Below, piece by piece: positions 1 through 64,000 of a DNA stretch of 64,000 nucleotides (position 1 is its first letter; every line of letters begins with the position of its first letter). Position numbers and translations under genes: made by a program. The notes below the pieces were generated by a model, which worked only from the letters and a program-made list of their open reading frames with translations, was not told the DNA's origin and made no database searches. Source of the DNA: an uncultured Campylobacter sp. (GTDB lineage Bacteria > Campylobacterota > Campylobacteria > Campylobacterales > Campylobacteraceae); contig CAURWB010000004.1 of NCBI GenBank assembly GCA_963528245.1, positions 774 through 64,773 on the forward strand. The letters run 5' to 3'.

Positions 1-595
1 TCTTTACGACTCGCCTTTTCTCTCTCGTTTAAAAACTGCGCCAATAAAAATAATCCTTGATAATCCACCGCAAAAACTCTCATTATTATATTAAAATGAG
101 AATTATACTTAAAATATCTCAAAATAAAATAAAAGCCAGTATCATTTTGATTTTGGCGCGTTGAGCGATAAACCAAAATTTGAGCTTTTAGTGATACTTC
201 AGCGCAAAGCAAAAGGCTTGAATTTCAAATTCGGGATTAATCTACATAAAAGCGACGTATTTACGGTAAATTTTACCAAATCGCGCAGAGTTCTAGTGCA
301 GTCGGCGTGCTTTGGTAAATTTACAAAAGATAGCAAAATTTACCGACTAATTATACGTACAAAAAGGGCGAAATTTAGTTGCCCGTCAGTCTAAATTTGA
401 AGCTTGGGCTTTAGCAAATCAAACAAATTTAAGCCCAAAGTAGCCAGAAATTGGTGCCAAATTTAGCTTGCGAGCAAATCCAAATTTGAGATGGCAAAGG
501 ATATATCGCTAAATTTTAGCCATCAAAATTTACTGCGAAAGCAATTTTAAATTCAGCGTCAAATTTATTTTGCTGGTGAGCTTTTTAAGGCAAAT

Positions 596-1582
596 TTAAC
601 TAACGAAAAACTCTTGCGCAGCCTGTTTACTTTCAAAAGGCTTCACGCGAATTTCGCGTTCGCCGACTCTAGCTCGTACCGCCGCGTCCTTATCCGTCTT
701 GGTATAAGCAAGCGCCAGCCGCACGGCAAACTCGAGGTCGGACTCGTTAAATTTAGCGTCCACTAAGCTCACCGCGCCCACGATATCGCCGTCAAATTTG
801 ATCTGCGTAAATTTCGGATTATTTAGGGCTAGCAGTTTGGCGTTGTCGTTTTCGTCGCGGCCGATGACCATTTTGGTGCCGTTTGCCAGGCGCAGATGCC
901 GCCCGATACGCAGCAGCTGCATATCTGCGCTAGTCATATCCGGGTCAAATTTGATGAAATCTTTGATTTTATTCGCAAAGCTCTCGATCGTGAGCAAGCA
1001 CCCGCCGCCGGGCGTCTCATACTCGCTAAAGCCAAACTCTTTCGCAAGCGCGAGCTGTCTTTTGCGGTCGCGTCCGCTGATGGCGAGCAGTTTGCTGCGA
1101 TCGACCCAGCCTTCGCGCTCGGGCTTTGTGGGCTTCATCAGCTGCGCAGACATCGGGCGCAAGATGAGATCATCCTCGTCGCCGGCAGCGTTTTTGACCT
1201 GCGCCATCGCGTCGCGTCTTTGGCTCATCGGACGCTGGCCGATCACCTCACCCGTCGCGATAAAGTCCGCGCCCTCCGAGCGCATCATCGCAAGCGCCGT
1301 TTTAAACATATATCCGTGGCAGTCGATGCAGGGGTTAAAGTGCTTGCCGTAGCCGTGCTTTGGCGTAAAAAGCACCTCGCGCAGGTATTCGCTTCTGATA
1401 TCTACGATCTTAAACTCGGCTCCGGCTTCATTCGCGCGGCGGCGTAAAATTTCCGCCTTTTTCTCGTCGCCGCTAAAGCCGATGTCGATATGGATCGCTG
1501 TAACTTCGATGCCTTGGGTTGTCAGCAGCTTGATAGAGATCATACTATCAAGCCCGCCGCTAAATAAAACTAATGCTTTCAT
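596..1582 (-). CDS. PP-loop ATP pyrophosphatase, ThiI/tRNA-thiolation-like (no THUMP domain)
   Basis: 328-aa ORF; N-terminal PP-loop SGGLDS (MKALVLFSGGLDS) and NPCIDCH cysteine motif; start overlaps the dnaG stop by 4 nt. Confidence 0.6.
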   Translation of the reverse strand: MKALVLFSGGLDSMISIKLLTTQGIEVTAIHIDIGFSGDEKKAEILRRRANEAGAEFKIVDIRSEYLREVLFTPKHGYGKHFNPCIDCHGYMFKTALAMMRSEGADFIATGEVIGQRPMSQRRDAMAQVKNAAGDEDDLILRPMSAQLMKPTKPEREGWVDRSKLLAISGRDRKRQLALAKEFGFSEYETPGGGCLLTIESFANKIKDFIKFDPDMTSADMQLLRIGRHLRLANGTKMVIGRDENDNAKLLALNNPKFTQIKFDGDIVGAVSLVDAKFNESDLEFAVRLALAYTKTDKDAAVRARVGEREIRVKPFESKQAAQEFFVS

Positions 1583-3252
1583 TTTTTAAGTTCCTTTAAA
1601 ATTTCGTTAATTTTTTTTAGTATCGGTTGCTTTTCTTCTAGCGAGATTTGCGACGCCGAATACTTTTTGTATAAATTTTTGTAAAATCTTGTTTTAAAAA
1701 ATTTTAGGTTTTGTAAAATTTCCTCCTCGTTTTTAAACGCCTCGTATTTTTCAAATATTATCTCGCGCACGGACGGATCGTTCGCGTCCGCTCCCGCCGC
1801 GATCGCTTCGTAGACTGCCCTGTGGCGCGCGAAATAATCGGGCTTTAAATTTTCTAAAATAAATTTTTTTAGACTCTCGTTTTCTATCATCGTTTTTAAA
1901 ATTTGGATTTCTAGCGGGTCTTTGCGTCCCGAGTTTGCGCGGAAATTTTGCGTTTCGTAGCCCTGCGCGTTTTGCTCCGTCCCGCCGTAGCCTTGCCGCA
2001 TCGGCGAATTTGATCCGCGTGAGAGGCGAAACGACCCCTCGGCTATCTTTAAAATTTTAGCCACGAGCGGCGCGTAGGAGTTTGCGACGACGGGTTTTAG
2101 GCTCGCGGTAAAGGCCTGGATCGCTTCTAGCGCTTTTTGCTTTTGCACGGGGCGCGAGAGGTCAAAGCCGCTAGCTAGATGCCTGATGTAAAATTCGCCG
2201 ATCTCCGTGCCGCTTTCAAAAATTTGCCGCAGATACTCTATCTTGCCGGCAACTACCATATCGGCCGGATCTGCGCCGCCCTCAATAATGACTACGCTGC
2301 CGTCGATTTCGTTTTGCGCGAGCAGCAGGGCGGACTTCGTCGCGGCATTTATGCCCGCATCATCGCCGTCAAAGCATAAGATAACGCTAATCTCGCCGCG
2401 TTTTAAAAGCGGCAAGTGCTTGGTAGTGAGCGCGGTTCCAAGCACTGCTACGACGTTGTTAAAGCCCGCCTTATGCAGCATGATGACGTCCATGTAGCCT
2501 TCGGTGATGATGATCTGATTTTTGGTGAAAATTTCTCGCTTTGCTAGGTGGTAGCCGTAAAAAAGAGTCGATTTGTCAAAAACCGCGGACTGGGGCGAAT
2601 TTACGTATTTAGCGGGGTTGCCGCTGATCGTGCGTCCGCCAAATCCCACCAGCCGCCCCGCATGCGTGTAGATAGGAAAGGTGATTCGGTTTATGAAACT
2701 CGCGTAAATGCCGTTTTCGTTTTGCTTTACGATGCCGACTTCTAGGGCTTCTTTGGGTTCGATTTGCTCGTTTTGCAGTAGCCTTATCGTCTGCGCGCTC
2801 TCGGGTGCGAAACCCAGCTCAAATTTATCTATCAGCTCGTCTGTTACACCGCGCGAGTAGAGATACTCCACGGCTGCTGGCGTTTTATAGAGCAGCGAGC
2901 GGTAAAAGGCGTTTGCGTTTTCTAGAATATGCTTGTTTTCCTTCGCCGGTTCGCCGCCTCGCACGTAGTTTAGTGTGAAATTTTGCAAACTAGCGATCTT
3001 TTCGACGGCTTCGGGGTAGCTTAGCTTTTCGTAGTCCATCACGAATTTGATCGCGTCGCCGCCGGCTTTGCACGAAAAGCAGTGAAATATCCCGCGCGAC
3101 GGGCTCACGCTCATGCTCGGGTTTTTATCGTCGTGAAACGGGCAGACGCACACGAAGTTCGCGCCACTTTTTTTCAGCGGCAGATAGTGCCCGACGACAT
3201 CGACGATATCGGTTTGCGCTTTTAGTCTTTCTATTGATTTTGGATCGATCAT
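1579..3252 (-). CDS. dnaG: DNA primase
   Basis: 557-aa ORF; CHC2 zinc finger CPFHDDKNPS...FHCFSC; Toprim motifs EGYMDV and DGDDAG. Confidence 0.95.
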   Translation of the reverse strand: MIDPKSIERLKAQTDIVDVVGHYLPLKKSGANFVCVCPFHDDKNPSMSVSPSRGIFHCFSCKAGGDAIKFVMDYEKLSYPEAVEKIASLQNFTLNYVRGGEPAKENKHILENANAFYRSLLYKTPAAVEYLYSRGVTDELIDKFELGFAPESAQTIRLLQNEQIEPKEALEVGIVKQNENGIYASFINRITFPIYTHAGRLVGFGGRTISGNPAKYVNSPQSAVFDKSTLFYGYHLAKREIFTKNQIIITEGYMDVIMLHKAGFNNVVAVLGTALTTKHLPLLKRGEISVILCFDGDDAGINAATKSALLLAQNEIDGSVVIIEGGADPADMVVAGKIEYLRQIFESGTEIGEFYIRHLASGFDLSRPVQKQKALEAIQAFTASLKPVVANSYAPLVAKILKIAEGSFRLSRGSNSPMRQGYGGTEQNAQGYETQNFRANSGRKDPLEIQILKTMIENESLKKFILENLKPDYFARHRAVYEAIAAGADANDPSVREIIFEKYEAFKNEEEILQNLKFFKTRFYKNLYKKYSASQISLEEKQPILKKINEILKELKK

Positions 3253-3294
3253 AAGCGAGATTATACAATCGTTTTGCTATAATCGGCGTTAAAT

Positions 3295-6629: not shown

Positions 6630-7386
6630 CTCCAAGATAAACCGCGCCCCAAACTAAGCTGAGTAAAACGGACGCTACGCGCGTTTGGGCGAGTCGGCCA
6701 CAAATACGTAAAATCCCGCCGCGAAATTTATAAAAAAATCGGACATTTTTGCGCGCGGCAAAGACGTTTGGCAAATTTATATTTATTATATAAATGGCGA
6801 GAAAAACGGCGTAACGGACATATTTTATATAAAAATATCTCACACGGCGGCTTAGAAAATTTGCTCGCAGGCGCCATAAAATATCTAAAATTTATGTAAT
6901 AAATCATAGAAAAACAGAGCGTGGCAAGGAGCTAGGAGCGCGTAAATTTAGACTCTTTAACCCTAACGGCAAGAAAAAGTACATCCTAAAAATACTTGCC
7001 AAACAGACTACAAGGCACGAAAATCTAAACCTTGGCACGATATTTATGCAGACGAGTCTATTTATGGCGTTTACGAGGAGTTTTGTAGATCTCTAAAACA
7101 TCTCCCGCAAAATAAGCCAAATTTGCAGTTTTACGCTACGTCGAACGGGAGCTGTCCTGGGGATCAGAAGTATGCGTAAATATCAAATTTACTCTTGTTT
7201 TCTTGTAAAATCAAATTCGACAACTAGGCCGTATTACATAAATTAGGTCACTCATAAGGTCGCCGATAAAACAGTTAAATTTAAAGACATTCTAGTTTTA
7301 GTTTTTTGATGTTCATATGAAAAATTCGTAAAATTTGCCGTCGCGCAAATGTTCAATCTATTTTACGAAAACAAGGCTGCACGAAG

Positions 7387-8047: not shown

Positions 8048-8983
8048 CTAAAACAGCCCGAAATTTTGCTTTAAATTCTCTTTGATAGGCTCAAGCGGTA
8101 GCGAAACTTCGCTATTTTTGCTGCCGACTGCACCGTCAAAAAACGTAATCCCGCTTGGCGAGAGCGTAAAATTTTCGCTCGGAGTTATCTTTTCTTTTGC
8201 GAAAATCGCAGTCAAATTTGCGTCGTTTAAATCCTTAAAAACGTCGCCAAAATTTATCTTTTTTAGATTTTTTAGCCAGACGGTTTTGCAGATTTTCCCG
8301 CCGGCGCTGACTTCACATACGCTTCTTATTTTGCCGTTTTGATACTCGAGGTTATTTAGCGCGTTTGCGGCGTTTTTTGAGGGGTCTTTGAGCCATGTCG
8401 TTTTAAAATTTTCAAGTTTTGCGGCGAGGGATTTTTTGTTATTTTGCGCAAATTTTGGTGCATAAAAGTCGCTCGCGACGGCTTCAAATCGCGCCCCGTT
8501 TCGTCCGATCTCTTGCAGTCCGAGCGCCATAAAATCATAGCTTGCGACCTGCTTTAGCACGGCTTTTCGCGCCTTGCCTCTGATTGCTAGCTTGCCCGTT
8601 AGTTCGCCGTTATCCGCTTTTACGCTTAGATTTAGCCACTCGGTGACCGCGTTTACGGCCGTTATATCGGCGCCCGATCTTTCGATGTTGCCTTTACTGA
8701 AGTCGTATCTGGCACCCTCAAAAAATGCGTGCCCTTGAAATTTGGGCGGCAAAATGGCGCCCTTGTCGCTAAAATTTTCAAACTCGACCTCAAGTTCGCT
8801 GATGTAGAGCTCAAATTTGCTCCCGTCCGCCTCGCCTGCAAATTTATAAATTTTACCCTCGTTTTCGTGCCTAATCTCGTAGCCTAGCACCAAAACGCAG
8901 GCCAAAAATATCGCCGCAACCGCTCTCACAACCGCTCCTTTTATATGCCCAGTGCCCAGCGTGAAAACGGCGCGACCTCGCAT
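8048..8983 (-). CDS. Membrane-anchored hypothetical protein (C-terminus weakly DUF3298/RsiV-like)
   Basis: 311-aa ORF; single N-terminal hydrophobic helix (AVAAIFLACVLVLGY). The 43-nt overlap with the upstream ATPase suggests a later real start. Confidence 0.5.
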   Translation of the reverse strand: MRGRAVFTLGTGHIKGAVVRAVAAIFLACVLVLGYEIRHENEGKIYKFAGEADGSKFELYISELEVEFENFSDKGAILPPKFQGHAFFEGARYDFSKGNIERSGADITAVNAVTEWLNLSVKADNGELTGKLAIRGKARKAVLKQVASYDFMALGLQEIGRNGARFEAVASDFYAPKFAQNNKKSLAAKLENFKTTWLKDPSKNAANALNNLEYQNGKIRSVCEVSAGGKICKTVWLKNLKKINFGDVFKDLNDANLTAIFAKEKITPSENFTLSPSGITFFDGAVGSKNSEVSLPLEPIKENLKQNFGLF

Positions 8984-10035
8984 TTTATGCCCTCGATGCT
9001 CGTCTCGCCGGAGTTTGCCACGCTGATTGCTTGTAGCCTATTTATACCTAAATTTTTTAAATTTGCGTGCAGTTTTTTAAATTTTAAAAAGACCAAATCC
9101 GCATCGCTAAACGGCGAGCAAATGATAGAAAGTTTCCTTTTTGGCAGGAAAAAATCAAGCTCTTTGGTATAAAAAATCTGCTCGTTAAATTTGGCCAGCT
9201 CGCAAAAAACCGTGTTGTTAAAATTTTTAGCGAAGTCCTTTTTTAGACTTAGTGCGCTTTTAAACGCAAAGTCGTTAAAATAAAGCCTTTTCGCGGCGTT
9301 TGGCTCGTTAAATTTTTCCACTAGGCTAACCGCGCTCATATTTTCTAGCTCGCTAAGCGCGCCGTAAACGCTATCTTTTGAGATTTTTCGGGTGGATTTT
9401 AGCGTGCTAAAAATCTCAAAGACGCTCACGTTTTGCGCCTGAGCTTTCGCGCACTCTTTTAGCACGGCTAGTTGCGTGGCGGATAGAGACGATTTTAGCG
9501 CGATTTGTAGATTTGCCGCGACGTTTTCGGCGTCGCAAAAGGCCGACGCAGGACTCCTGCCATGAAGCAAAAAGTGGCTAAAAAGCGTCTCGGGATCGAT
9601 CTTTTTTGAAAAAAAGGCGATAAATTCCTCGTAGTCTAAAAAATCCAAATTTAGCTCGTTAAAGCCGTTTAAATTTGTATCTTTAAACCGCGAGGCGACG
9701 ATAAAATTTGATAAATTTAGCTCCAAAATCGGCTCAAATTTATCCCAAAATCTCTTCTCGAAATCATCGATCGCTAGAATTTTTATCTGAGGATTTTGGC
9801 GTAAAAACTCGGGCAAATTTGACAAAATATCATCCGCATCTATGCGAAGGTCGCCTAAATTTACGTACAAAAACTCTTTGCTCTCAAATGCCGATAAAAA
9901 ACCCGCGATCAGCGAGGTTTTGCCGCTTCCTATACCGCCCTTTATCAGCGTTTTTGGCGCTGTGATTTCAAATTTTCTATTTATAAATTTGACGTTTTTC
10001 GGCGGGCTTTGGTAGAGAGCGTTTAGAGTTTGCAT
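8941..10035 (-). CDS. P-loop ATPase (AAA/DUF4143-like ATP-binding protein)
   Basis: 364 aa; Walker A GGIGSGKTS and Walker B-like ILAIDDFE. Confidence 0.65.
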   Translation of the reverse strand: MQTLNALYQSPPKNVKFINRKFEITAPKTLIKGGIGSGKTSLIAGFLSAFESKEFLYVNLGDLRIDADDILSNLPEFLRQNPQIKILAIDDFEKRFWDKFEPILELNLSNFIVASRFKDTNLNGFNELNLDFLDYEEFIAFFSKKIDPETLFSHFLLHGRSPASAFCDAENVAANLQIALKSSLSATQLAVLKECAKAQAQNVSVFEIFSTLKSTRKISKDSVYGALSELENMSAVSLVEKFNEPNAAKRLYFNDFAFKSALSLKKDFAKNFNNTVFCELAKFNEQIFYTKELDFFLPKRKLSIICSPFSDADLVFLKFKKLHANLKNLGINRLQAISVANSGETSIEGIKCEVAPFSRWALGI

Positions 10036-21068: not shown

Positions 21069-21826
21069 TGGCTATAACCATCATGCAGCCAAACGACATA
21101 GAGAAGATGCGAGCGGCGAATAAAATCGTCGCTCAAACCCTCGACTACGTAGAAAGCGTGATCAAGCCCGGCATCTCACTGCTCGAAATAGATAAAATTT
21201 GCGAGGATATGATAAGGTCCGCAGGCGCAAAGCCGGCATTTAAGGGGCTTTACGGCTTTCCAAACGCCGCTTGTATCAGCGTAAACGAAGTAGTCATCCA
21301 CGGAATCCCGAACGAATACAAACTACAAGAAGGCGATATCGTAAGCGTCGATATCGGCTCAAATTTGAACGGATACTTCGGCGATTCGGCTAGAACTTGG
21401 GGCGTGGGTCAAATTTCGCGCGAAGACGAAAAGCTGATCGCTTGCGCCAAAGATGCGTTATATTTTGCGATAGATACCGTAAAAGCAGGAATGCACTTTA
21501 AAGAGCTTAGTTTTGAAATCGAGAAATTTATAAGAGCTCGCGGATTCGTTCCGTTAACGGGATTTTGCGGTCACGGCATCGGTAGACGCCCACACGAAGA
21601 TCCGCAAATTTTAAATTATTTAGAGGGCGGTAGCCCAAAATCAGGACCTAAAATTAAAAACGGAATGGTATTTTGCGTGGAGCCGATGATCTGCCAAAAA
21701 GATGGCACTCCGGTGATCGGTCACGACAAATGGAAAGTAACTAGCAAAGACGGGCTAAGAACCAGCCACTACGAGCACTGCATGGCAGTCGTAAACGGAC
21801 GTGCGGAGATCTTAAGTCTAGCGTAA
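21068..21826 (+). CDS. map: Type I methionine aminopeptidase
   Basis: 252 aa; metal-ligand context VDIG, GHGIG, EPM. Confidence 0.96.
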   Translation: MAITIMQPNDIEKMRAANKIVAQTLDYVESVIKPGISLLEIDKICEDMIRSAGAKPAFKGLYGFPNAACISVNEVVIHGIPNEYKLQEGDIVSVDIGSNLNGYFGDSARTWGVGQISREDEKLIACAKDALYFAIDTVKAGMHFKELSFEIEKFIRARGFVPLTGFCGHGIGRRPHEDPQILNYLEGGSPKSGPKIKNGMVFCVEPMICQKDGTPVIGHDKWKVTSKDGLRTSHYEHCMAVVNGRAEILSLA

Positions 21827-21830
21827 AATT

Positions 21831-21870
21831 TTAAAATTTACAAATCGTTTGCGCGACTTGTAAATTTTAA
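21831..21870. repeat. 13-bp perfect inverted repeat between map and infA (possible terminator or operator)
   Basis: TTAAAATTTACAA (21831-21843), 14-nt loop, TTGTAAATTTTAA (21858-21870). Confidence 0.4.
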
Positions 21871-21951
21871 AATTTTAATTTGTGGTGAGTTAAAATTTTA
21901 AATCCAAATTTCCGCCCAGCGGCGAAAGTAAATTTAACAAAAAGGAGTTAA

Positions 21952-22440: not shown

Positions 22441-22443
22441 AGC

Positions 22444-29428: not shown

Positions 29429-29849
29429 CGCGCGCGCTCGTTCGCATGGGTCTCAGCTCCGCGATAGTTTATTTTGTTGCGCTTTGCGCAGCTTTTAAAT
29501 TTGCCGAAATGATCAAAATTTAGCGCCCGCCGCGTCTGCACTATCTTAAATGCTCTTTTGGTTCCGTGATTTACCGTCTTGCTTCGACTATTATATTTCT
29601 CAAATTTACAAAAAGTCCACGCTAGAAAACTACGCAGGCATTCTTGCGGGAGCCAAAACAGATCAAAACTCGCGCAGTTCACTTAAAGCAAAATTTCATC
29701 GTCAAATTTGACGGCTTTTCAGGCTCAAATTTACCCGTCCGCGCTCGTATCCGCGGCGAGTTTTAAAGGCGGGAACGAAACTTGCATTGCAGGCTTTAAA
29801 TAAAGTAAATTTAGCTTAAATTGGCTAAAATAACGCGAAATTTGAAAGG

Positions 29850-30173
29850 ATGTTTATGTTTGAGGGGATAGATTTTTCAAAAATGGGACAGATGCTCGAG
29901 GAGGCGCAAAAAAAGGCGCAAGAAATCGAGCAGGAGAGTCAAAAGCGCGAATTTAGCGTAAAAAGCGGCGGCGGGCTCATCAGCGTCAGAGCAAACGGCA
30001 AGGGCGAGGTGCTCGATATCAGCATCAACGACAGCTTGCTAGAGGACAAGGAGAGCTTGCAGATCTTGCTCATCAGCGCCGTAAACGACGTGCTAAAGAT
30101 GATCGAGGACGACCGCAAAAACGCCGCGTCAAGGATGCTGGGCGGGTTTGCCGGCATGGGACTAGGGCAATGA
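29850..30173 (+). CDS. ybaB: YbaB/EbfC family nucleoid-associated protein
   Basis: 107 aa; typical YbaB pattern (MGQMLEEAQK...GGGLISV..NG...L.I...L). Confidence 0.88.
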   Translation: MFMFEGIDFSKMGQMLEEAQKKAQEIEQESQKREFSVKSGGGLISVRANGKGEVLDISINDSLLEDKESLQILLISAVNDVLKMIEDDRKNAASRMLGGFAGMGLGQ

Positions 30174-31468: not shown

Positions 31469-32647
31469 ATGCAAAATCAAAATTTAGCGGTAAAATCAAA
31501 ATTTAGTAGTAATGATCAAATTTGCGTTCAAAGCACGGCGAAATCGTCAAATTTGAGCGAGTCGCAGGCGCTGCCGAAGGATCAAATTTTAGCTCGCAGT
31601 TCGCGCGCGAGCTCGTACCAAAACCGCTCTCAATTTTTAAACGCGAACAAAGCTAGAATAAACTCCGAAAATCCGACTCAAAGCCCGAAAAACAGAGCAA
31701 ATTTGATCTCGCTCAACGCGGCAAAAGGCTCGTGTTTTACCTCGGGCGCAAATTTACAGCCCGGCATAAATCAAACGGCTCTGAGCGCCGCCGATCAGGA
31801 CGCGCTTTTGGCCGAGTTTAAGGCGTTTTTGAATGCGCATTTACCAAGCTCGCCTAGCTTTCATCCGTGCTTTGACGACGCGCTTTCCTACACGCTAAAA
31901 TCGGGCGGAAAGCACTTTCGCGCGATGCTGGTCGCAGGCGTCGTAGCGGCGGTGCGTCCCGAGCGCAAAGAGGCGGCGTTTCACGTAGCGCTGGCATTTG
32001 AGACGATGCACAGCTACTCGCTCATCCACGACGATCTGCCGGCGATGGACGACTCGGATCTGCGCCGCGGACAGCCTAGCTTGCACGTCAAATTTGACGA
32101 AGTGACGGCGATCCTAGTGGGCGACGCGCTAAACACCCACGCCTTTTATCAGATAGCAAGGGCTCCGCTGGATGCGGACGCGCGCATAAAATGCGTCGAG
32201 ATCCTAAGCCGCAACGCAGGTATCTACGGCATGGCGCTGGGGCAGGCGGTGGATTGTTATTTTGAAAATCAAAAACTAGGGCTTGAAGAGCTAAAATTTT
32301 TGCATATCCACAAGACCGCGCGCCTCATCGCGGCGAGTTTGCAGGCAGGCTGCGTCGTGGCTGGGCTAGACGAGGCGGAGGCTGCGCGTATCTACGATAT
32401 CGGGCTTGATCTGGGGCTGGCGTTTCAGATCGCAGACGACATCATCGACGCGACGCAAAGCGCCGAAACGGCGGGCAAGCCGACGCATAACGACGGCGCT
32501 AAAAACTCCTTTACCAACCTTCTTGGCGTGGAGGGCGCGGTGCAGGCTAAAAACGAGCTCATCGCAAAGATAGAGCGCGAGCTAGGCGGCGTGCATGCGG
32601 GCATACGCGCTATCGTGACGGGCCTCATCGACAAGCATTTGCGGTAA
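31469..32647 (+). CDS. ispA: Polyprenyl (farnesyl/geranyl) diphosphate synthase; the ORF carries a 113-codon low-complexity 5' extension
   Basis: 392-aa ORF; LIHDDLPAMDD and FQIADDIID aspartate-rich motifs. Homology to IspA begins near codon 114 (TTG 31808). The ATG at 31469 has a GGAG Shine-Dalgarno. Confidence 0.85.
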   Translation: MQNQNLAVKSKFSSNDQICVQSTAKSSNLSESQALPKDQILARSSRASSYQNRSQFLNANKARINSENPTQSPKNRANLISLNAAKGSCFTSGANLQPGINQTALSAADQDALLAEFKAFLNAHLPSSPSFHPCFDDALSYTLKSGGKHFRAMLVAGVVAAVRPERKEAAFHVALAFETMHSYSLIHDDLPAMDDSDLRRGQPSLHVKFDEVTAILVGDALNTHAFYQIARAPLDADARIKCVEILSRNAGIYGMALGQAVDCYFENQKLGLEELKFLHIHKTARLIAASLQAGCVVAGLDEAEAARIYDIGLDLGLAFQIADDIIDATQSAETAGKPTHNDGAKNSFTNLLGVEGAVQAKNELIAKIERELGGVHAGIRAIVTGLIDKHLR

Positions 32648-32854
32648 ATTCGGCTTAAATTTGCGTTTTAGGCGGTTAAATTTGAGCAGTTAAATTTGCC
32701 GTCAAATTTCGCAAATTTTATCTTTAACTACAAAACTCTATCCGCTCGGTATAAATAAACCATCTCGCAAACCATGCCGATGCCGCCGTAAATTCGGCAA
32801 AATTCGGCTCTCTTTTTATGCTATAATCTTTTAAATTTATCAAAAGGAGAGATA

Positions 32855-34105
32855 ATGAAAAAAATAGCCTTATCGCTTGCGCTTTTGTGTGCGGCGGCGT
32901 TTGCCAAAGAGTACGACTACATGCTAGCTAGCACCGCGCAAAAGACTTTTGAGGAGCCGACTTCTAGCTATGAAACGAAGCAAAGCTACGACGCCAAGGC
33001 TTGCCGCCTAGAGCTAGTTAGCAGCTCCGAGCTAGCAGACGGCCTAAAGGGCAAACACAAAGAGGTCAGCTACTACAACAAAGCCGGCGAGATGACGAAA
33101 TTTGAAGCCTTTAGCTATGATTTTACCGCGAAAAAATGGATCAAAGTAACCGAATACAAAGCCGACTATAAAAAAGGAGTCCTCACGCAGGAGTCTAGTT
33201 CGTTTATCAGGGGCGTGCCGGAAAATGCTAGCAAAATCATCACAAAGTACCTAAAAAACGCTAGCGAGGAGATCAGATACGAGCTGATAAAAGGCAAGTG
33301 GCAAAAAGCCGCGCTAACCAAAACCGTCGAGAACGCATACGGCGAGAACGAGCTTATAGTGCTGAGCGTCTGGGACGGCAAACGATGGCAGCCTAAGTCA
33401 AAAACGCAGCTGCTCTACGGCGCAGATGGACAGACGCGCGGCTATGAGAGTTGGGACTACGAAAACGGCGCGTGGCAAAACCGCGAAAGAAGCACTGTTG
33501 CAGGCGATGTGAAGGGCAAATACGAGCAGGTAAGAAGCGTATTTGAGGACGGCACGTGGCGCTATGACGAGATGTCAAAGCACGACTACGACGCCTCTAG
33601 CGGCAAAGACGTGACGATAAATCTCATCTGGAACGCCGAACAAAACGCATGGGAAAACAACAGCAAAAGCGTCTCGGTCGTAGAGGGCGCGGGCTTCGAG
33701 ACGGCGGCGTTTTTGTGGGATAAAGAGCGCAAAGAGTGGAAGCAGGAGTACTCCAACCGCAGCATCTACGACAAGACCGGCGAGCGTCTGCTAACTCAGC
33801 GGTACGACACGATGGACGGCAGCGAGAAGTTCGTCTACGGCTACAACGAGCGCGGCGATAACGTGAGCGTGGATATCTATGAGCTAGCTAGCGACGAAAA
33901 CGGCAAAAGATGGGTGCAAAATAAGCGCCTAGAAACGACCTTTGATCCGCGCATATTAGCCGACGACGTCGGACACGGCGGCTCGCTGATGTCCTTTGAG
34001 ATGCCTAGCAGATACGCGGTGACTAGCTTTAAGCAGTTTGTCGCGGCGGACAGTAAATTTAAGCTCGCCTCAGAGCAGACGTGGAAATATAAAAGGGTCA
34101 AATGA
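32855..34105 (+). CDS. Secreted repeat protein (8 x W..W / YD-like modules), paralog A
   Basis: 416 aa; signal peptide MKKIALSLALLCAAAFA; repeated modules such as WDYENGAWQ and SIYDKTGERL. Confidence 0.7.
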   Translation: MKKIALSLALLCAAAFAKEYDYMLASTAQKTFEEPTSSYETKQSYDAKACRLELVSSSELADGLKGKHKEVSYYNKAGEMTKFEAFSYDFTAKKWIKVTEYKADYKKGVLTQESSSFIRGVPENASKIITKYLKNASEEIRYELIKGKWQKAALTKTVENAYGENELIVLSVWDGKRWQPKSKTQLLYGADGQTRGYESWDYENGAWQNRERSTVAGDVKGKYEQVRSVFEDGTWRYDEMSKHDYDASSGKDVTINLIWNAEQNAWENNSKSVSVVEGAGFETAAFLWDKERKEWKQEYSNRSIYDKTGERLLTQRYDTMDGSEKFVYGYNERGDNVSVDIYELASDENGKRWVQNKRLETTFDPRILADDVGHGGSLMSFEMPSRYAVTSFKQFVAADSKFKLASEQTWKYKRVK

Positions 34106-34254
34106 TCTTTTGCTAGCGGCCCAACTGCGGTAAATTTGACGCTTTGGATTTGGTCAAATTTAACGAGCGCCAGAGCGTCAATTTAGCTCGTTAAATTTTG
34201 CTTTCGCATCAAATTTGACGCCGTTTGGGCGGCTAAATTTAAAAAGGAGCGAAT

Positions 34255-35526
34255 GTGAGATCTTTTTGGAAAGCAGCGGCGATGGCTGCGATTTGGGCCT
34301 TGCCGCTAGCTGCGTCGGGCGAAATTTGCCTAAAAAAGACTATCTATAAAACGCAGGGCGACGCCGTGCCGCGCTACAAATATGAAACGAGCCAAGCTTA
34401 CGACGCGAAGGCTAGAGTGCTAGAAAAAATCTACGACGAAATCAGCGACGAGGGCAGGCGCAGGACGAAAAGCATTGTCAAATTTGACGAAAGAGGCGAG
34501 CGCGAGATAGGCAGCACCGAGTACGAGTGGGACTTTAGAGCCGGCAAATGGCGCAAAGCAGGGTTTTCAAAAACAGAGAGGACAAAGGACGGCACGTTTG
34601 TTTTTATTGATACCCGCAGTCGAAACGGCAAGCTAAATCAAGGTCAAAAAAACGTCGAAAAGCGAACGGGCGCGACGGAAATCTCTCAAAATTTCACCCT
34701 AAAAAACGGCAAATGGACGCCGACGTATCTAATCAAAAGACTTTATGACGAAAACCACAAAACCGCGCTCATAGCGACATTTGAGTGGAGCGCCAAAGCC
34801 AAAAAATGGACTCCGTACGAAAAATCTATATACCGCTACAACGGCGACGTTTACGCTAGCTCCGAGGGCTATAAATGGCGCGGCAAATGGGTGCCGCAGA
34901 CGAAGCATGCGGCCTTTACGGCTGCGGATGGAGCGCGTACCGAGATAAATTTTACGTGGAGCCAGGACGCGTGGCAGCCGCAGGAGAGGACGTTGCAGAA
35001 AATAGAGCTCGAGTTTAGACGCTTTACCGATCTTAGATGCCGCTGGGACGCTGCAAGGAGCGAGTGGAACGGCTGCTACAAAAACGTGCGAGAGGAGACC
35101 GAACAAGGTAGGCTAAAATACTCCGCATCGTCGTTTTGGCATGAGGAGTCACAGCGCTGGGAGGTCGTGTTTGAAAACGAGCTTAGCTACGACGCGCGTG
35201 GCAACCTGATAAAAAATCGCGAGATGTCTGATGGCGAGCGGCGCGAGTACGTCTATACCTACGACGAGGCGGGAAATAACGTATCCTCAGCGCTTCGCGA
35301 GCCCGATGAGAGCGGCAAATGGCGCGAAACGCAAAAAACGGTAAACGTCTTTGAGCCGGACATCTTGGCGCGCGACGTCATGGATCGCGGATTCATCGGC
35401 GACTACGTGGCTGCGGGCGAAAACGCGATCAAAAGCAGCAAGCAGTATTTTTTAGACGGCGATGAGTTTAAGCTAAACGAGACGCTCGAGTGGTTTTACG
35501 AAAAGTGCGAGCAGTCTCGTGAATGA
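34255..35526 (+). CDS. Secreted repeat protein, paralog B
   Basis: 423 aa; GTG start after AGGAG; shares YETxQxYDAKA, the W..W modules and FEPDILARDV / FDPRILADDV with paralog A. Confidence 0.7.
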   Translation: MRSFWKAAAMAAIWALPLAASGEICLKKTIYKTQGDAVPRYKYETSQAYDAKARVLEKIYDEISDEGRRRTKSIVKFDERGEREIGSTEYEWDFRAGKWRKAGFSKTERTKDGTFVFIDTRSRNGKLNQGQKNVEKRTGATEISQNFTLKNGKWTPTYLIKRLYDENHKTALIATFEWSAKAKKWTPYEKSIYRYNGDVYASSEGYKWRGKWVPQTKHAAFTAADGARTEINFTWSQDAWQPQERTLQKIELEFRRFTDLRCRWDAARSEWNGCYKNVREETEQGRLKYSASSFWHEESQRWEVVFENELSYDARGNLIKNREMSDGERREYVYTYDEAGNNVSSALREPDESGKWRETQKTVNVFEPDILARDVMDRGFIGDYVAAGENAIKSSKQYFLDGDEFKLNETLEWFYEKCEQSRE

Positions 35527-35644
35527 GCCGTGTATCGTTCAAATTTCGCGCGATGATGCGATGACGTCTGGCTGTGAGGCGGATTTTGGCGTCTAAATTT
35601 GACGAGCGGCGGATGATGGTTTTTAAATAAAATTTAGGAGAAAT

Positions 35645-36502
35645 ATGCGAAATTTAGAGCAAATTTTAGCGTCGCTAGACGAGAGCGCGCAAAAGGTTTT
35701 GGTTTTAGGATGCGCAAAACACCCCGTTTGGGACGATGCGCAGGAGGTTTTCGCGCTAGCTACGAGGCAAATTTTAGATAAAAGCCTAGGGTTGCAAAAG
35801 GGCGTTGATTATAGCAAAACTCCTAAATTTTATGGTGCCCGGCCGCTCGCGTTTATCGGCGTGCATGCGCAGATGATCGGGCGAAAAAGCATAGGATTTT
35901 TGCTTACGGAAAGACATCTTTTGGTTAAATTTGACTCGTCGGCCGTAAACGTAGACGAGGTAGCGGCGGCGTTTAGGCTCGATAAGTATTTGCAAAACGA
36001 GCTGGAAAATCTCGCGTGGCAAGAGCTAGAAAAATGCAAATTTGAAATCGAGGACGAGATGAAAGCGGCGATGAAAACTGCGTTAAAAGCGGTCTTGCAG
36101 GCGGTTTTAGAGGAGGGCGTTAAGGTCGAGGAGCGCACGATCGCGGATAAAATTTTGGAGCTTGAGCTGGGCGAAGCGCTAAAAACGCCGCTTGACGAGA
36201 CGAAGCTGCTATCAAAATCGCTTAGCGTCTTTAAGCCCGTCTCGCCGATGCTTCACAGCCTTGACTGCTCGCTTTTTGGTAAGCCTTACGGCGTGATACT
36301 AGACGAGCGCGGACTTATTAGCCGCGAGCTGATGGAAGAGCCGGTTTTTAGCTCGTGGGACGAGATCGGGGGCGCACAAATCGAAGTAAAAGAGGACGCC
36401 GTAATAATCGGCGAAAAAGAGCATAAGATACCTTTTGAGCTAAAAGAGAAAAAGGAAAATTTCGCCGAGTTTTTAAAATTTACGGCGGCGTTAAAAGCGT
36501 GA
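35645..36502 (+). CDS. Hypothetical cytoplasmic protein
   Basis: 285-aa ORF with an AGGAG Shine-Dalgarno; no signal peptide; no motif recognised. Confidence 0.55.
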   Translation: MRNLEQILASLDESAQKVLVLGCAKHPVWDDAQEVFALATRQILDKSLGLQKGVDYSKTPKFYGARPLAFIGVHAQMIGRKSIGFLLTERHLLVKFDSSAVNVDEVAAAFRLDKYLQNELENLAWQELEKCKFEIEDEMKAAMKTALKAVLQAVLEEGVKVEERTIADKILELELGEALKTPLDETKLLSKSLSVFKPVSPMLHSLDCSLFGKPYGVILDERGLISRELMEEPVFSSWDEIGGAQIEVKEDAVIIGEKEHKIPFELKEKKENFAEFLKFTAALKA

Positions 36503-39012: not shown

Positions 39013-39183
39013 TAATTAATCCGAGGTGCGCTATTTTTTAAATTTTAGGCTAGCCGTGAAAGAATATTTATGCGGTCTAGCACAAATTTATTCGGAAGCT
39101 AGGGCGGTTAAGCGAGCATGCCGCTTGCGAGATTTTGCTACCAGGATTTCTCTAAAACCCTTAAATTTAAAACCAAGCGCTTA

Positions 39184-39202
39184 CCCCCCCCCCCCAAAAA
39201 AA
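39184..39202. repeat. Homopolymer C12 followed by A7
   Basis: Counted directly: C at 39184-39195, A at 39196-39202; lies in a 560-bp spacer. Confidence 0.95.
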
Positions 39203-39572
39203 CCGCTCATACAAGCGCTAGTCTATTAAGGCCCGTATTTACGGCTATTTCACGTAAATTTGCGGTCTATTGTAGATTTAAGGCGTGATTAAAATACGCT
39301 ACTCTACTCCGCAAGGAGCGGGAGTGTCTGGTAGTGTTCACGCCCAACTCGGCTTTTTGCATTTATTGCCGCTTCTCGCTCTTGATACCGCGTCGTCGCT
39401 CGTCCGCACCGATACGTAAATTTATCCCGCCCGTTTGCCTTAAAATTTGAGTAAATTTTATGATTTTTCTGCTAAAATCGCGTCTTTACGACTTTTAAAA
39501 CTGTGGCGAAAAATCTCAAATCTGCCGCCAAATTTGCGTAAAACGACTAAAATTTTATAATCAAGGTATAAA

Positions 39573-40362
39573 ATGGAGCTTTCGCATATTATCGTTTTGG
39601 CCCTAGTTCAGGGTATTAGCGAGTTTTTACCGATCTCTAGCTCAGCTCACCTCGTGCTGGTGCCTAAGCTACTTGGCTGGGCGGATCAGGGGCTTGCCTT
39701 TGACGTCGCCGTTCACGTAGGCACGCTAGCGGCGATACTTTTTTATTTTAAAGACAGGCTTGCTGGGCTCGTGCGCGATTTTTTCGCATCTATCGCGCGG
39801 CGCGAGAAGGTCGGCGACAGCACGCTCGTGTGGTCGGTTGGCTTTGCGACCGTGCCGGTGGGGCTTTTTGGCGTTTAGCGACGCCATCGAGCAGTACGCT
39901 AGAAGCGGGCTCGTGATCGCGGCGATGACGATAATTTTTGGTATCGCGCTCTACGTCGCGGATAAAAAATCGGGCCTAAAAACAGAATACGAAATGACGA
40001 TCAAGCTCGCTCTCATCGTGGGGCTAGCACAGGCGATCGCGCTGATACCCGGCGTTTCGCGCTCGGGCGTGACGATGACGGCGGCGCTGATGCTTGGCTT
40101 TAGCCACAGCGCAAGCGCAAATTTCTCGTTTTTGCTCTCAATCCCCGTGATCGTGCTAGCAGGCGGGCTCGAGGCGGTGAAACTGATAAAAACCCCAGAC
40201 GCGCTACCTTGGAGCGACCTTGCTATAGGCGCGACGGTTAGCGGCCTTAGCGCGTATCTTTGCGTGCGGCTGTTTATGGCGCTGATCGCGCGCGCGAGCA
40301 TGCTGCCGTTTGTTATCTACCGCATGATTTTGGGCGTGTTTTTGTTCGTGATGTTTTTATAA
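39573..40362 (+). pseudogene. uppP: Undecaprenyl-diphosphate phosphatase split by a +1 frameshift in a T5 run
   Basis: ORFs 39573-39878 (EFLPISSSAHL motif) and 39760-40362 (PGVSRSG motif) are the two halves of UppP/BacA. Removing one T from 39865-39869 gives a continuous VPVGLLAFSDAIEQ. Confidence 0.8.
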
Positions 40363-40436
40363 AAATAGTCAAATTTGGGCTCAAATTTATGGTTTGCGGC
40401 CCAAATTTGCTTTGTAAATCTAAAGCGCAAATTTGA

Positions 40437-44482: not shown

Positions 44483-44674
44483 AAATCTAAATTTTAGATT
44501 TACGCTTTAAATTTGGGTTTGGTTTGGCGGCTAAATTTGACCCGAAGCGAGGGTAGATAAATTTGCGGGCGGTTTTGTTAAATTTGACTGCCTATGAGTG
44601 GGTTTTGTCTGGCTCGCTCGTTGAATTTGGATACGGATAACGGCGGCAAATTTGACTGTTTATACTGATTGCTA

Positions 44675-45145: not shown

Positions 45146-45314
45146 ATCCTCCGCCTAAAGTCAAATTTTAAATTTATCCAGCCTAGTTTGTATGTAAACG
45201 GCGAGCGGTTAAAATCTTCAAGTTACGTTGCCGTTTAAATTTACGCCGACTTTCAAATTTGACCCAAATTTACGGTCAAATTTCACCCGCGTTCCCGCTT
45301 AGTCGCTGTCAAAT

Positions 45315-47097: not shown

Positions 47098-47628
47098 TTA
47101 CTCGGATTTTTTGCAGACGGCGGCCGAGTGCGTGAGTAGATCGTGCAGATTTAGCGCGTCTTTGCGAAAAAAGCAGAGGCAAAGTCCGACGATGCTAACG
47201 CCTGCAAGCAAGAAGCACGTATAGCGTAGCAAAACGCGTGCGAAGCCGAGCTTGCGTCCGCTGCGTAAGTCGATGAGGTAGATATTTTGCGAACGGTAGC
47301 CGGGCGTTTGGGCTTTGATCGCAAAAAAGGCGCAGCAGATGAGAGCGACTGCGAGATTTGCCCCGAATATCGCAGTTTGGTTGTGCAAAAAGTCGTCTTT
47401 GCCGCCTAAGAAAACATAGGTCGTGAGGTAATATATCGGCATCCCGATCAAAAAAAGATCGGTGATAAAGGCTTTTACTCGCGCACCGATGGTGGCTAGC
47501 TGCGCTTTTTGTTTTGCCAAATTTACTCCTTTTTTGCTTTGTTTTTTTGGGCGCATGTTTTGAGTTTTTGAGCGCCAAATTTGATCGCTAGCGCCCAAAT
47601 TTATGCTCTTTTGCTTTTGTTGCGGCAA
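47098..47628 (-). CDS. RDD-family membrane protein
   Basis: 176-aa ORF; GARVKAFITDLFLI... 3 TM ... LHDLLTHS. The start is uncertain (internal ATG at 47556). Confidence 0.65.
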   Translation of the reverse strand: MPQQKQKSINLGASDQIWRSKTQNMRPKKQSKKGVNLAKQKAQLATIGARVKAFITDLFLIGMPIYYLTTYVFLGGKDDFLHNQTAIFGANLAVALICCAFFAIKAQTPGYRSQNIYLIDLRSGRKLGFARVLLRYTCFLLAGVSIVGLCLCFFRKDALNLHDLLTHSAAVCKKSE

Positions 47629-48225
47629 ATTTACGTCTGCTTGTGCTACCGCTTCGGTGCGGTAAATTTACGGCTCGTTTCCGGGTTTCGCTTGCGCCGT
47701 CTTAGCCGGCCAACCTTGCTCCGCTCGTAAATGGCGCTTCATTTGCCGCCCGATTATACGCCTGGCATAATCTTTACGATATCCGTCGCCTTTGTTTGCT
47801 TTTGGCTACGCACTCGTTTGATGATCGATAATTTTCGTCTCGCATGTTTTTGCTAGGCCTGCTTGCGCTTGATTTATCGCCCGCCCCCGCATCGTTATCA
47901 AGCCGTAAATTGCCGAAACTATGCGCCACTTTTAAAATCATAAATTTTAGGAAGCGCTTTTGCGGGCGTAAATTTATCTAAATCCAAATTTGGCGGTCGC
48001 CGTCAAATTCGCAAGACGGCAACACGAATTTGATTCCGCTCCGATCGCGACTTGCAAAAACGCAACTGCGGGCTTCATTTATCGTCAAATTCATCTCTCA
48101 AGATATCGCAGAGCGCAGCATGGCCGAGTCAAATTTGATTTGCGATCGGCTTGCATTCATTGATGCCCGCAAAATCCGTCCAAATTTGTACGACTAAATC
48201 AAGCATGGCCGCGAAATTTGAAAAT

Positions 48226-56261: not shown

Positions 56262-56293
56262 CTAAAATCCTTTTAAAATTTGGCTTTTTAACG

Positions 56294-59290: not shown

Positions 59291-59299
59291 AGGCTCTCC

Positions 59300-59842: not shown

Positions 59843-59848
59843 AAAAGC

Positions 59849-60847: not shown

Positions 60848-61203
60848 CTGTGATCCTTTTTAAAAGATTAGCTAATTCAGCTAGGTGCAATTATAATTCA
60901 TAAAAAAGCGGCTGCGTGAAAATGTTTCGACTTTTTGCAATAAATTTCAAATTTATGTGTAGATAAGTAACAATATCTCAAATTTGACCGTCAAATTTGA
61001 GTGCAAGCCAAGGTAAAATATAACGCTAAAAAGATTAAATGTTACGAAAATACACATTATTTTTGTCAAATTTGATATTTTCGCGCGGCGAAACGAATAA
61101 AATTTGATAAAACGGAAGCATCGGCGGGTTTGTTTGCGCGTTAATAAATTAATTACTATTTTATTGCTATAATACGGATAAATTTTATTACAAAGGAAAA
61201 ATT

Positions 61204-61854: not shown

Positions 61855-62042
61855 TGCCAAAAATTCGCTGATATTGCGAGTTTTTAGGTGCAGCCATAAA
61901 TTTGTGGCGGCTTATTTTTCTAAATAAGCGTAAGTCCGCGAGTAAACTTAGCTTTGAACGAGGACTCCTTCTTGGCTAAGTTTACTTTATATAAACTATT
62001 TTGAAGTAATATTCGAGTCTCATTTCACAAAAAAGGACGAAA

Positions 62043-62408: not shown

Positions 62409-62415
62409 AAACTTT

Positions 62416-62436
62416 CCCGCCGAATTTTACGGCGGG
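62416..62436 (+). terminator. GC-rich hairpin after the lipoprotein gene
   Basis: CCCGCCG aatttta CGGCGGG; no clear T-run on the plus strand. Confidence 0.4.
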
Positions 62437-62752
62437 GCTCTCTCCTGCTCAAATTTATCAAATTTAACTCCCGCAAAATCTCGTCAAATTTGAACTTTCG
62501 CTTGCTTTTCATCTTTCTTTCAAATTTGCTCAAATTTAATATCTCTTATCAAAAATGGCTTTGTATTAAATTTTAATAGCCCTCTATAAAATGCCCAAAT
62601 ATACGCGATTTAAAAGTGATTTTAAACTTAAAAATGACATTTTTAAAATGCCCGGAGAGCAAATTTCGGTCACTAAATTTTAAGCCAACTTTGCTAAAGC
62701 ATTAGATATACTTCCGAAATTTTTTGTTAAAAAGTAGCTGGAGGGCGGGTGG

Positions 62753-64000
62753 ATGAAATTTATATTAAAGCGTGATGGAACAAGACAAGAATACCTCCCG
62801 TATAAAATCCAAGACGCCATCAAAAAAGCCTTTGAAAGCGAGTCCAAAGAGTACGACGACAAGGTCTTTTTAGACGTGATGGGGCACGTGTTTGACAGCG
62901 AAGTTTTGAGCGTCGAGGACGTGCAAGACTACATCGAAAAGGCGCTTTTTAACGCGGGACACTTCGACGTGATGAAGAGCTTTATGCTCTACCGCCACAC
63001 GCACAAGCTTCAGCGCGAGCAAATTTTAGGACTAAACGAAGATACGACCTACATCAACTCCACCCAAACGATCAGCGAGTACATCAACGGTACCGACTGG
63101 CGCATCCTGGCTAACTCAAATACCAGCTACTCAAACGCGGGTCTCATCAACAACACCGCAGGCAAGGTCATCGCCAACTACTGGCTAGATAAGGTGTATA
63201 GTAAAGAAGAGGGCCTCGCGCACCGAAACGGCGACTATCACATCCACGACCTAGACTGCCTCACGGGCTACTGCGCAGGCTGGAGCCTTAGGGCGCTTTT
63301 AAACGAGGGTTTTAACGGCGTGCGCGGCAGGGTCGAGAGCAAGGCGCCCAAGCACTTCCGCGAAGCGCTATATCAAATGGCGAATTTCTTAGGAATTTTA
63401 CAAAGCGAGTGGGCGGGCGCGCAGGCGTTTAGCAGCTTTGACACCTATCTTGCGCCTTACGTTTTCCGCGACAAGCTAAGCAATAAAGAGATCAAAAAGG
63501 CGATAACGAGCTTTATCTTTAACCTAAACGTGCCGGCTCGTTGGGGCCAGAGTCCGTTTACTAACGTAACGATCGACATCACCTGCCCGTCCGATCTGCG
63601 CGACCAGATACCTACGCGCGAGGATAGGCATATATTTAGCGATCTAGAGGATGAGGGGCTTGCTAAGGAGGCCGCCAAACGCGGCTTTAACAAGCTAACC
63701 GATATGACCTACCGAGCCTTTGAGCCCGAGATGAACCGCATCGACAAGGCGTTTTACGAGATTATGACCGAGGGCGACAAGTGCTCGCAACCATTTACTT
63801 TCCCGATACCTACCGTAAATATCACCGAGGATTTCGACTGGGACAGCGAGGTGGCGAAGGTGCTTTTTGAAAACACGGCAAAAATGGGCTCGAGCTATTT
63901 TCAAAATTTCGTCGGCAGCCAGTATACGACCGATGAAAACGGCAACCGCGTCGCAAACGACAAGGCCTATAAGCCGGGCCACGTGCGCTCGATGTGCTGC
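62753..64000 (+). CDS. nrdD: Anaerobic ribonucleoside-triphosphate reductase (5' partial, runs off the window)
   Basis: Open frame from the ATG at 62753 to the window end (416 codons); N-terminal ATP-cone (MKFILKRDGTRQEY), then NrdD-like sequence. Absent from the track because there is no stop. Confidence 0.85.
   Translation, partial: MKFILKRDGTRQEYLPYKIQDAIKKAFESESKEYDDKVFLDVMGHVFDSEVLSVEDVQDYIEKALFNAGHFDVMKSFMLYRHTHKLQREQILGLNEDTTYINSTQTISEYINGTDWRILANSNTSYSNAGLINNTAGKVIANYWLDKVYSKEEGLAHRNGDYHIHDLDCLTGYCAGWSLRALLNEGFNGVRGRVESKAPKHFREALYQMANFLGILQSEWAGAQAFSSFDTYLAPYVFRDKLSNKEIKKAITSFIFNLNVPARWGQSPFTNVTIDITCPSDLRDQIPTREDRHIFSDLEDEGLAKEAAKRGFNKLTDMTYRAFEPEMNRIDKAFYEIMTEGDKCSQPFTFPIPTVNITEDFDWDSEVAKVLFENTAKMGSSYFQNFVGSQYTTDENGNRVANDKAYKPGHVRSMCC

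Follow-up and report, generated by a model that had tools for sequence, protein, structure and literature searches.

Why should a single palindromic hexamer, AAATTT, be packed into nearly every intergenic spacer of a bacterial chromosome? The question is raised by a stretch of 64,000 nucleotides (the window) from an uncultured Campylobacter species, positions 774 to 64,773 of contig CAURWB010000004.1 in assembly GCA_963528245.1. The gene content of the window is of a housekeeping kind, with dnaG, rnc, aroC, the S10-spc-alpha ribosomal operons, murE, panD, tkt, secG and frr. Its SecY protein is 100% identical to that of several uncultured Campylobacter metagenome-assembled genomes (MAGs) and 87% identical to that of C. 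concisus; by this comparison the window is assigned to a Campylobacter of the C. concisus/rectus-like group. A metagenome scaffold in ENA matches the window exactly. A first-pass annotation of the window had described the arrays and offered three possible origins: a self-recognition or uptake tag, a curvature or nucleoid-protein element, and the footprint of a small repeat family. The analysis described here gives even weight, for and against, to a form of the first. The excess of AAATTT would reflect the accumulation of a methylated RAATTY uptake tag, in the manner of the DNA uptake sequences (DUS) of Neisseria and the uptake signal sequences (USS) of the Pasteurellaceae, with the tag narrowed to AAATTT and densest where coding constraint is absent.

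The window holds 468 copies of AAATTT, about 20 times the 22.4 predicted from its base composition (46.8% GC). Markov models of order 1 and order 2 predict 84 and 95 copies, respectively, and 100 dinucleotide-preserving shuffles yielded 84.8±8.6 with a maximum of 106. Measured against shuffled sequence, the excess is real and larger than the first-pass annotation had claimed. AAATTT is the top hexamer of the window, 2.4-fold above the next, and the runners-up, TAAATT (195) and AATTTA (187), both only overlap it. The density of the degenerate motif RAATTY, to which AAATTT conforms as a subset, is 9.0/kb.

The division of these copies between genes and spacers was made on a simple greedy map of the open reading frames (ORFs) of the window, which also underlies the spacer counts. 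On this map, 206 copies lie in spacers (19.7/kb, ~22-fold over the composition expectation) and 262 in genes (4.9/kb, ~17-fold). The arrays had been presented as a phenomenon of the spacers, a view that the excess in genes overturns; at ~17-fold, it moves the reading from an intergenic element to a genome-wide sequence pressure. The observation that almost every spacer carries the motif did stand, as 37 of the 38 spacers of at least 40 bp contain a copy and 28 of the 38 contain at least three. The ribosomal genes had been said to hold few copies, and the ribosomal-protein block, the genes of which are under strong constraint, does have 3.05/kb vs 5.46/kb in the other genes.

The pressure within genes acts on DNA rather than on protein. 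When synonymous codons were shuffled among identical amino acids, so that proteins and overall codon usage were kept, 80±6.6 copies were expected in genes vs 263 observed, which rules out codon or dipeptide usage as the cause. The two out-of-frame registers, in which the hexamer straddles three codons, hold 69 and 97 copies where the shuffles give 7.9 and 8.2. For Lys-Phe, the AAATTT spelling is used in 97 of 118 instances, and the dipeptide itself is found at 1.51 times expectation in the window vs 0.44-0.73 in Sulfurospirillum, Helicobacter and Arcobacter. Phe-Lys, the same pair in the opposite order, serves as the control and is close to 1 everywhere. A similar imprint on the proteome is known for USS and DUS (PMC2817400), and the genome-wide excess in genes and spacers, not explained by codon usage, is a trait that the window has in common with those systems.

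The distribution of the motif was studied in a set of 80 loci centred on SecY and drawn from the breadth of the Campylobacterota. In the window clade, C. concisus, C. majalis and a second clade of ~47% GC, no hexamer is commoner than AAATTT, which is enriched 5-26-fold. Its frequency is that of chance in Sulfurospirillum, Helicobacter, Arcobacter and relatives with a comparable GC content, and GC-rich relatives outside Campylobacter such as L010, L018, L024 and L035 have no excess of the AAATTT type. All enriched loci form one clade on the SecY tree. RAATTY has a density of 7.5±1.1/kb across 12 independent Campylobacter lineages with a GC content of 29-47%, with more sites at higher GC (Spearman +0.80). 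In the 50 loci from the rest of the Campylobacterota it is 2.2±0.7/kb, with a mean ratio to chance of 0.94, and falls with GC (-0.71). The two sets of densities do not overlap; the excess follows the genus, to which the host of the window belongs.

Whole-genome counts in the literature agree with this genus-wide density. Counted on both strands, there are 27,514 RAATTY sites in C. jejuni, 28,482 in C. coli and 24,750 in C. fetus (PMC4294202, PMC8627207, PMC13436318). With approximate genome sizes, these convert to ~8.4, ~8.3 and ~6.6 sites/kb, respectively. Two loci close to Campylobacter, L062 and L010, are without the RAATTY excess. On the SecY tree, the former lies at the base of the jejuni-like branch; the latter has a SecY that is 87% identical to that of the window, yet it groups with Sulfurospirillum-like loci. 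They are natural controls for whether the excess accompanies ctsM, the gene of the adenine methylase described below.

The unit of the excess is the hexamer itself. It had been noted that many copies extend to TCAAATTTGA, and the extended form is slightly in excess (19 occurrences vs ~11.5 expected from independent flanks); the flank preference is nevertheless weak (T-Y-AAATTT-R-A) and differs between lineages, which leaves the 6-mer as the unit. An extended palindrome of 10-14 bp is weakly supported as the unit and is lineage-specific. A4T4 occurs 24 times, exactly as independent flanks predict. With G at position 1 (GAATTT/AAATTC), the enrichment is 1.4-5.4-fold in all Campylobacter groups; with C or T there, the hexamer is at ~1x or below (0.4-1.3x). 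Decay by transition is not enough to explain this, because G at position 2 or 3 is at ~1x in the groups of concisus, L041/42, L036 and L008. The enrichment of A and G alone at position 1 is the R/Y degeneracy of RAATTY, expressed across the genus. Lineages differ in emphasis: AAATTT and GAATTT are enriched 1.4x and 3.6x in L008, 7.6x and 5.4x in L041/42, and 20.8x and 2.6x in the window. The effective motif of the window clade has narrowed from RAATTY to AAATTT, and the G variants are not maintained.

Other NAATTN palindromes are scarce in the window, with one CAATTG (0.1x), seven TAATTA (0.3x) and five GAATTC (0.3x). GAATTC is at 0.1x in C. concisus, and CAATTG is at 1.0-2.3x in outgroups. 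This depletion could arise from restriction avoidance (EcoRI- or MfeI-type) or from drainage of AATT words into AAATTT.

A site of this shape has a described role in the genus. Studies have shown that C. jejuni imports only DNA methylated at RAATTY by CtsM (PMC8468864, PMC10046745), an orphan adenine methylase of the D12 class (PMC4294202). Conservation of RAATTY methylation extends from C. jejuni to C. coli, C. lari, C. fetus and C. hyointestinalis (PMC8627207, PMC12679398, PMC13436318). The C. coli enzyme of this type, M.Cco280II, has ~364 aa. The proposed mechanism is that AAATTT would be the form of RAATTY used in this lineage, as the target of the conserved orphan N6-adenine methylase CtsM (M.CjeNI family). 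Fragments with more methylated sites would be imported and recombined more often, and alleles that create or keep a site would be over-transmitted, by the logic of molecular drive or selection that has been put forward for DUS and USS. In this way the site would build up across the chromosome, to ~5/kb under protein-coding constraint and to 20-60/kb in free spacer DNA, a contrast in density that may be what reads as "arrays". In the GC-rich clade, the favoured form would have narrowed to AAATTT, with G variants no longer maintained and GAATTC depleted. Methylation of the sites here, competence of the organism, and uptake bias as the driver in place of another use of the mark are all inferred. 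Among the explanations considered, this one is judged the most likely because the enrichment is restricted to Campylobacter, has the shape of RAATTY and acts at the level of DNA. Restriction to the genus, R/Y degeneracy and action within genes also make the self-recognition or uptake option, which the first-pass annotation had tied to CtsM and RAATTY, the best supported of its three.

If the site were maintained, its copies should be lost slowly and created readily. Gains and losses were scored in syntenic relatives that are 5-9% diverged from the window, through panD and secG, as lineage-specific changes against the majority state over ~40 kb; the ribosomal region alone has too few sites to judge. 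With pooled control hexamers, spacer copies of AAATTT are lost in 5.9% of site-lineages vs 9.8% for controls, and are created from neighbours one change away in 1.5% vs 0.45%. Pooled controls overstate the gain bias (3.3x), because G>A transitions are common. When the comparison was repeated with base-specific rates and alignment-quality filters, spacer loss was 0.39-0.71 of expectation, and gain was 1.65-2.4 of expectation in spacers and 1.7-1.8 in genes, on small numbers. Pooled gains amount to 25 vs 14.1 expected. The direction is that predicted by maintenance, and the bias is modest. Polymorphism on the terminal branches probably dilutes the signal. Strain-variable segments of the relatives have a motif density equal to that of the core, and so provide no test of depletion in foreign DNA.

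These data also bear on a neutral origin, in which a context-dependent bias of mutation or repair turns near-cognate AATT words into AAATTT, with the product having no function. Gains are mostly G>A and C>T transitions, the commonest substitution class in these alignments, and the remaining NAATTN palindromes, like most variants one change away, are depleted, as if drained into AAATTT. A pure creation bias, however, does not predict that spacer copies are lost more slowly than comparable sequence (0.4-0.7x), and such a bias would need palindrome specificity, restriction to one clade and variability between A and G at position 1 across lineages. A neutral origin is considered very unlikely. As a separate observation, substitutions are strongly biased from GC to AT in the alignments of window positions 18-38 kb and 40.7-61 kb with relatives. 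In well-aligned spacer columns, the rates per site-lineage are 2.0-3.9% for C>T, 1.8-2.9% for G>A, 0.8-1.4% for A>G and 0.8-2.3% for T>C. The genome stands at 47% GC despite this bias.

The spacing of the copies bears on a structural role. Copy-to-copy distances in the window spacers have a period of ~11.5 bp (z=4.6), which none of 1000 jittered or uniformly re-placed nulls reaches. The periodicity is not reproduced in other clades, with z=1.7 in the GC-47% clade, none in C. concisus/majalis and z=1.8 in partly homologous relatives. The phasing is suggestive and keeps a structural role possible, perhaps beside the uptake tag. In such a role, rigid A3T3 blocks with a narrow minor groove, which induce curvature, would be kept by a GC-rich Campylobacter on one face of the helix, to bend or compact the DNA or to seat an architectural protein such as HU or YbaB, and the spacer arrays would act as platforms for bending or binding.

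Phased A-tracts, with their intrinsic curvature, and the periodic AT-rich signal of C. jejuni promoters are the known parallels, since AAATTT is of the AnTn type, and the period is close to the ~11 bp of A-tract periodicity in bacterial genomes. AAATTT also exceeds TTTAAA, the non-bending permutation, by 3.4-fold, and no flexible pyrimidine-purine step occurs within RAATTY. The specificity is too sharp for general curvature, however: the 468 copies of AAATTT compare with 130 of AAAATT and 137 of AATTTT, A4T4 is at the level that flanks predict, and A3T3 is favoured too strongly over A4T2, A2T4 and T3A3. Unlike phased A-tracts or a promoter signal, the excess is of one hexamer, is nearly as strong in genes and is not tied to promoters. 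The phasing fails to recur in independent clades, and the GC-rich relatives named above show no such need. The curvature or nucleoid option of the first-pass annotation keeps some probability through the phasing in the window; a structural element as the main cause is considered unlikely.

Several points weigh against the uptake explanation. The phasing of ~11.5 bp is not predicted by it. The measured gain and loss bias would sustain only a ~3-4x excess and not one of 20x; recent losses (67) exceed gains (23); and, within genes, the lower loss is no peculiarity of AAATTT, since hexamers made up of A and T alone change just as slowly. In the window clade, GAATTT/AAATTC evolve at the neutral rate with a third of their changes leading to AAATTT, and GAATTC is depleted (5 vs 17 expected). 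This narrowing would mean either that the specificity of the reader has shifted or that something besides CtsM-type recognition is acting. No ORF resembling ctsM or a methylase was found in the window or in 1.8 Mb of relative loci by regular-expression searches with EcoRI-family and then generic motifs, of which the EcoRI-family pattern belongs to the wrong family for the D12-class CtsM. In 2017, Beauchamp et al. reportedly found that one methylated site suffices for transformation of C. jejuni; if so, 7-9 sites/kb is far beyond need. Confidence in the explanation is held at an even level because methylation, the methylase gene and competence are presumed for this clade, the motif has a narrower form here than RAATTY, and substitutions at present show a modest bias.

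A related possibility retains the methylation mark and assigns it a role other than uptake, such as replication timing, repair, chromosome organization or gene regulation, as for Dam/GATC and CcrM/GANTC, with the density selected for that role. It shares the phylogenetic and degeneracy evidence of the uptake explanation, and orphan methylases of RAATTY are conserved in the Spirochaetaceae and Akkermansia as well, groups in which they have no known part in uptake (PMC4752239; bioRxiv 10.1101/2022.11.07.515285). Against it, the copies in the window favour no position with respect to promoters. Dam and CcrM sites are alike in being palindromic targets of conserved orphan adenine methylases, but we know of no well-studied system of this kind in which GATC or GANTC is enriched 7-20x genome-wide. 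Large excesses are typical of uptake sequences and of the cyanobacterial palindrome HIP1. A role of the mark outside uptake is given a low probability.

The arrays themselves were then considered as features. The array of 12 copies in 187 bp that had been reported at 17697-17883 is exact, at 64/kb, and the 16 further arrays that had been listed contain 4-13 copies each, at 14-56/kb with a mean spacing of 18-69 bp. The principal features are as follows, with no strand assigned except where one is given.

1 to 64,000: the whole population of 468 AAATTT copies, 262 in genes and 206 in spacers, from counts with dinucleotide and synonymous-codon shuffles.
161 to 600: array of 13 copies, upstream of or adjoining the first gene of the window.
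8048 to 10035, minus strand: two ORFs without a family match, of the highest in-gene density (11.8 and 13.7/kb), from a family search and counts.
10845 to 10990: array of seven copies (48/kb), 5′ of the S10 operon.
17697 to 17883: the densest array, in the spacer between rpsH (S8) and rplF (L6) of the ribosomal-protein operon, from counts and comparison with relatives.
21826 to 21935: seven copies in 110 bp, in the map-infA interval.
29700 to 29713: palindrome of 14 bp, CGTCAAATTTGACG, the most extended version of the motif, 5′ of the ybaB/ebfC gene.
32640 to 32730: array of five copies in 91 bp.
40363 to 40436: four copies in the 74 bp that separate two convergent genes, a setting without an expected promoter.
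44483 to 44674: six copies in a 192-bp spacer between convergent genes.
45146 to 45314: seven copies in 169 bp (41/kb).
62409 to 62752: nine copies in 344 bp.

The 14-bp palindrome is present where it had been placed, and it is not regarded as a separate repeat because the window has only two copies of the 14-mer. A gene for a nucleoid-associated protein of the YbaB/EbfC family is located at 29850-30173, 137 bp downstream of it.

The clustering of copies in spacers is superficially repeat-like, and a small mobile repeat carrying AAATTT, similar to a miniature inverted-repeat transposable element (MITE) or a repetitive extragenic palindrome (REP), was considered. An all-against-all BLAST comparison of the 38 spacers returned only four trivial matches of 23-29 bp, the commonest 12-mer has nine occurrences, and the flanks are almost without information. 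The spacers share nothing beyond the hexamer; the repeat-family option of the first-pass annotation is rejected, and the chance that a mobile repeat underlies the arrays is negligible.

The position of the arrays in turn bears on a promoter origin, in which they would be AT-rich upstream elements such as the periodic AT signal that takes the place of the -35 box in promoters of C. jejuni. Many arrays do lie upstream of genes, and a periodic signal is present. Arrays are, however, found in spacers of every orientation, and convergent spacers are as dense as any or denser. Density is flat at 15-30/kb from stop codons to start codons, being as high downstream of stops as upstream of starts, and 262 copies are within genes. 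The convergent-spacer arrays and the flat positional profile rule out a reading based on promoters only, and promoter elements of any kind are a highly improbable source of the excess.

The spacers had also been described as unusually long. The statement applies to the rpsH-rplF spacer, which is 77 bp in the ~47%-GC (L028) clade, ~200 bp with 2-5 copies of AAATTT in C. concisus/C. majalis, and 383-632 bp with 8-12 copies in the window clade. Among relatives L001-L006, the positions of the hexamers in this spacer are kept while the intervening bases vary. On this comparison of sequences, arrays lengthen particular spacers. It does not apply to the DNA as a whole, as the non-coding share is ~11-15%, which is ordinary for bacteria. 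This share was taken from the gene calls accompanying L082 and L090, both identical to the window, since our own crude ORF caller was judged unreliable for the non-coding fraction. The non-coding fraction of C. jejuni is lower, at ~6%.

Other elements were observed in the spacers. A perfect hairpin with a 13-bp stem (TCTAAAACGCTAC-GTG-GTAGCGTTTTAGA) is located at 17655-17683, directly 3′ of rpsH, and looks like a terminator within the ribosomal-protein operon. In the rpsH-rplF spacers of relatives L003 and L006, a unit of ~65-70 nt that includes a hairpin of this type is present once or in up to about four diverged tandem copies, and the number of units differs between close species. A near-perfect palindrome of 25 bp (24/25) occurs at 60977-61001 in the divergent spacer 60848-61203, with two AAATTT copies inside it (60980 and 60993). 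Three spacers of 670-760 bp (6630-7386, 39013-39759 and 47557-48225) have a lower motif density (12-15/kb) and a higher GC content than the others, and may be gene remnants or unannotated small genes. Rfam and tRNA scans of the spacers found no RNA gene besides one tRNA-Ser. Among the coding sequences, five consecutive or adjacent ORFs at 32855-36502 and 8048-10035 (416, 423, 285, 311 and 364 aa) have no NCBIfam or Pfam match. The last two (311 and 364 aa) are the minus-strand pair listed above, which illustrates how deeply the motif enters weakly constrained coding DNA.

The closest known system is that of C. jejuni, in which uptake depends on CtsM and RA(m6A)TTY, the N6-methyladenine (m6A) form of the site (PMC8468864, PMC10046745). 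The window is alike in genus, in a motif that RAATTY includes, in ~8-9 sites/kb, in the palindromic 6-mer and in the R/Y degeneracy across the genus. It is unlike C. jejuni in that the excess there is ~2x with A/G usage following base composition, whereas here it is ~20x, essentially of AAATTT, with GAATTC depleted. The DUS of Neisseria (a 12-mer) and the USS of the Pasteurellaceae (a 9-mer core) are alike in occurring in genes and spacers, in being denser outside genes, in their codon and dipeptide imprint and in being independent of a mobile element. Their lineage "dialects" (PMC3630211) are paralleled by the A/G lineage variants described above. They are unlike in being longer, non-palindromic, unmethylated, present at ~1/kb and read directly by a pilin or receptor. 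The window motif is not a non-palindromic sequence of 9-12 nt but a 6-bp palindrome with uninformative flanks at 7/kb, the recognition of which would depend on m6A.

HIP1 (GCGATCGC) of cyanobacteria is likewise a short palindrome that is hugely over-represented in coding and non-coding DNA; AAATTT, the most over-represented word of the window, is present in both. It is the target of resident methylases, and has been reported to raise transformation efficiency in a methylation-dependent manner (bioRxiv 10.1101/2024.09.10.611283). HIP1 differs in being 8 bp long, GC-rich, at ~1/kb and in another phylum, and its function is still unsettled.

The role of RAATTY as an uptake tag in C. jejuni, and its high frequency there, are already known. 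The literature searched contained no description of an AAATTT excess in non-jejuni Campylobacter or of a ~20-fold excess in GC-rich Campylobacter, nor of a near-constant RAATTY density in the genus, a lineage preference for A or G, or the codon and dipeptide imprint. A wider proposal, held tentatively and at somewhat less than even confidence, is that the genus maintains a methylated-tag density of ~7-9 sites/kb whatever its base composition. GC-rich lineages would thus carry the strongest and densest excess of the uptake-signal kind known (20x, up to 64/kb in spacers). By the same proposal, AAATTT and GAATTY "dialects", the former dominant here and the latter in other lineages, could bar gene flow between species that share a niche, and the hexamer may double as a phased A-tract.

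The density of AAATTT provides a sharp signature for the binning and taxonomy of oral and gut Campylobacter MAGs. Methylation-sensitive digestion of the ApoI/XapI type could enrich Campylobacter DNA, and the addition of methylated AAATTT may render poorly tractable species transformable. If the uptake explanation is true, the genus would offer a clean natural experiment, in which one 6-bp tag is held at constant density over an 18-point range of GC with lineage-specific variants. Drive versus selection, the distortion of proteins and spacers, and isolation by dialect would become testable with a motif that is easily added, removed and methylated. The methylated-RAATTY self tag of C. jejuni would then become an evolutionary rule for the genus as a whole.

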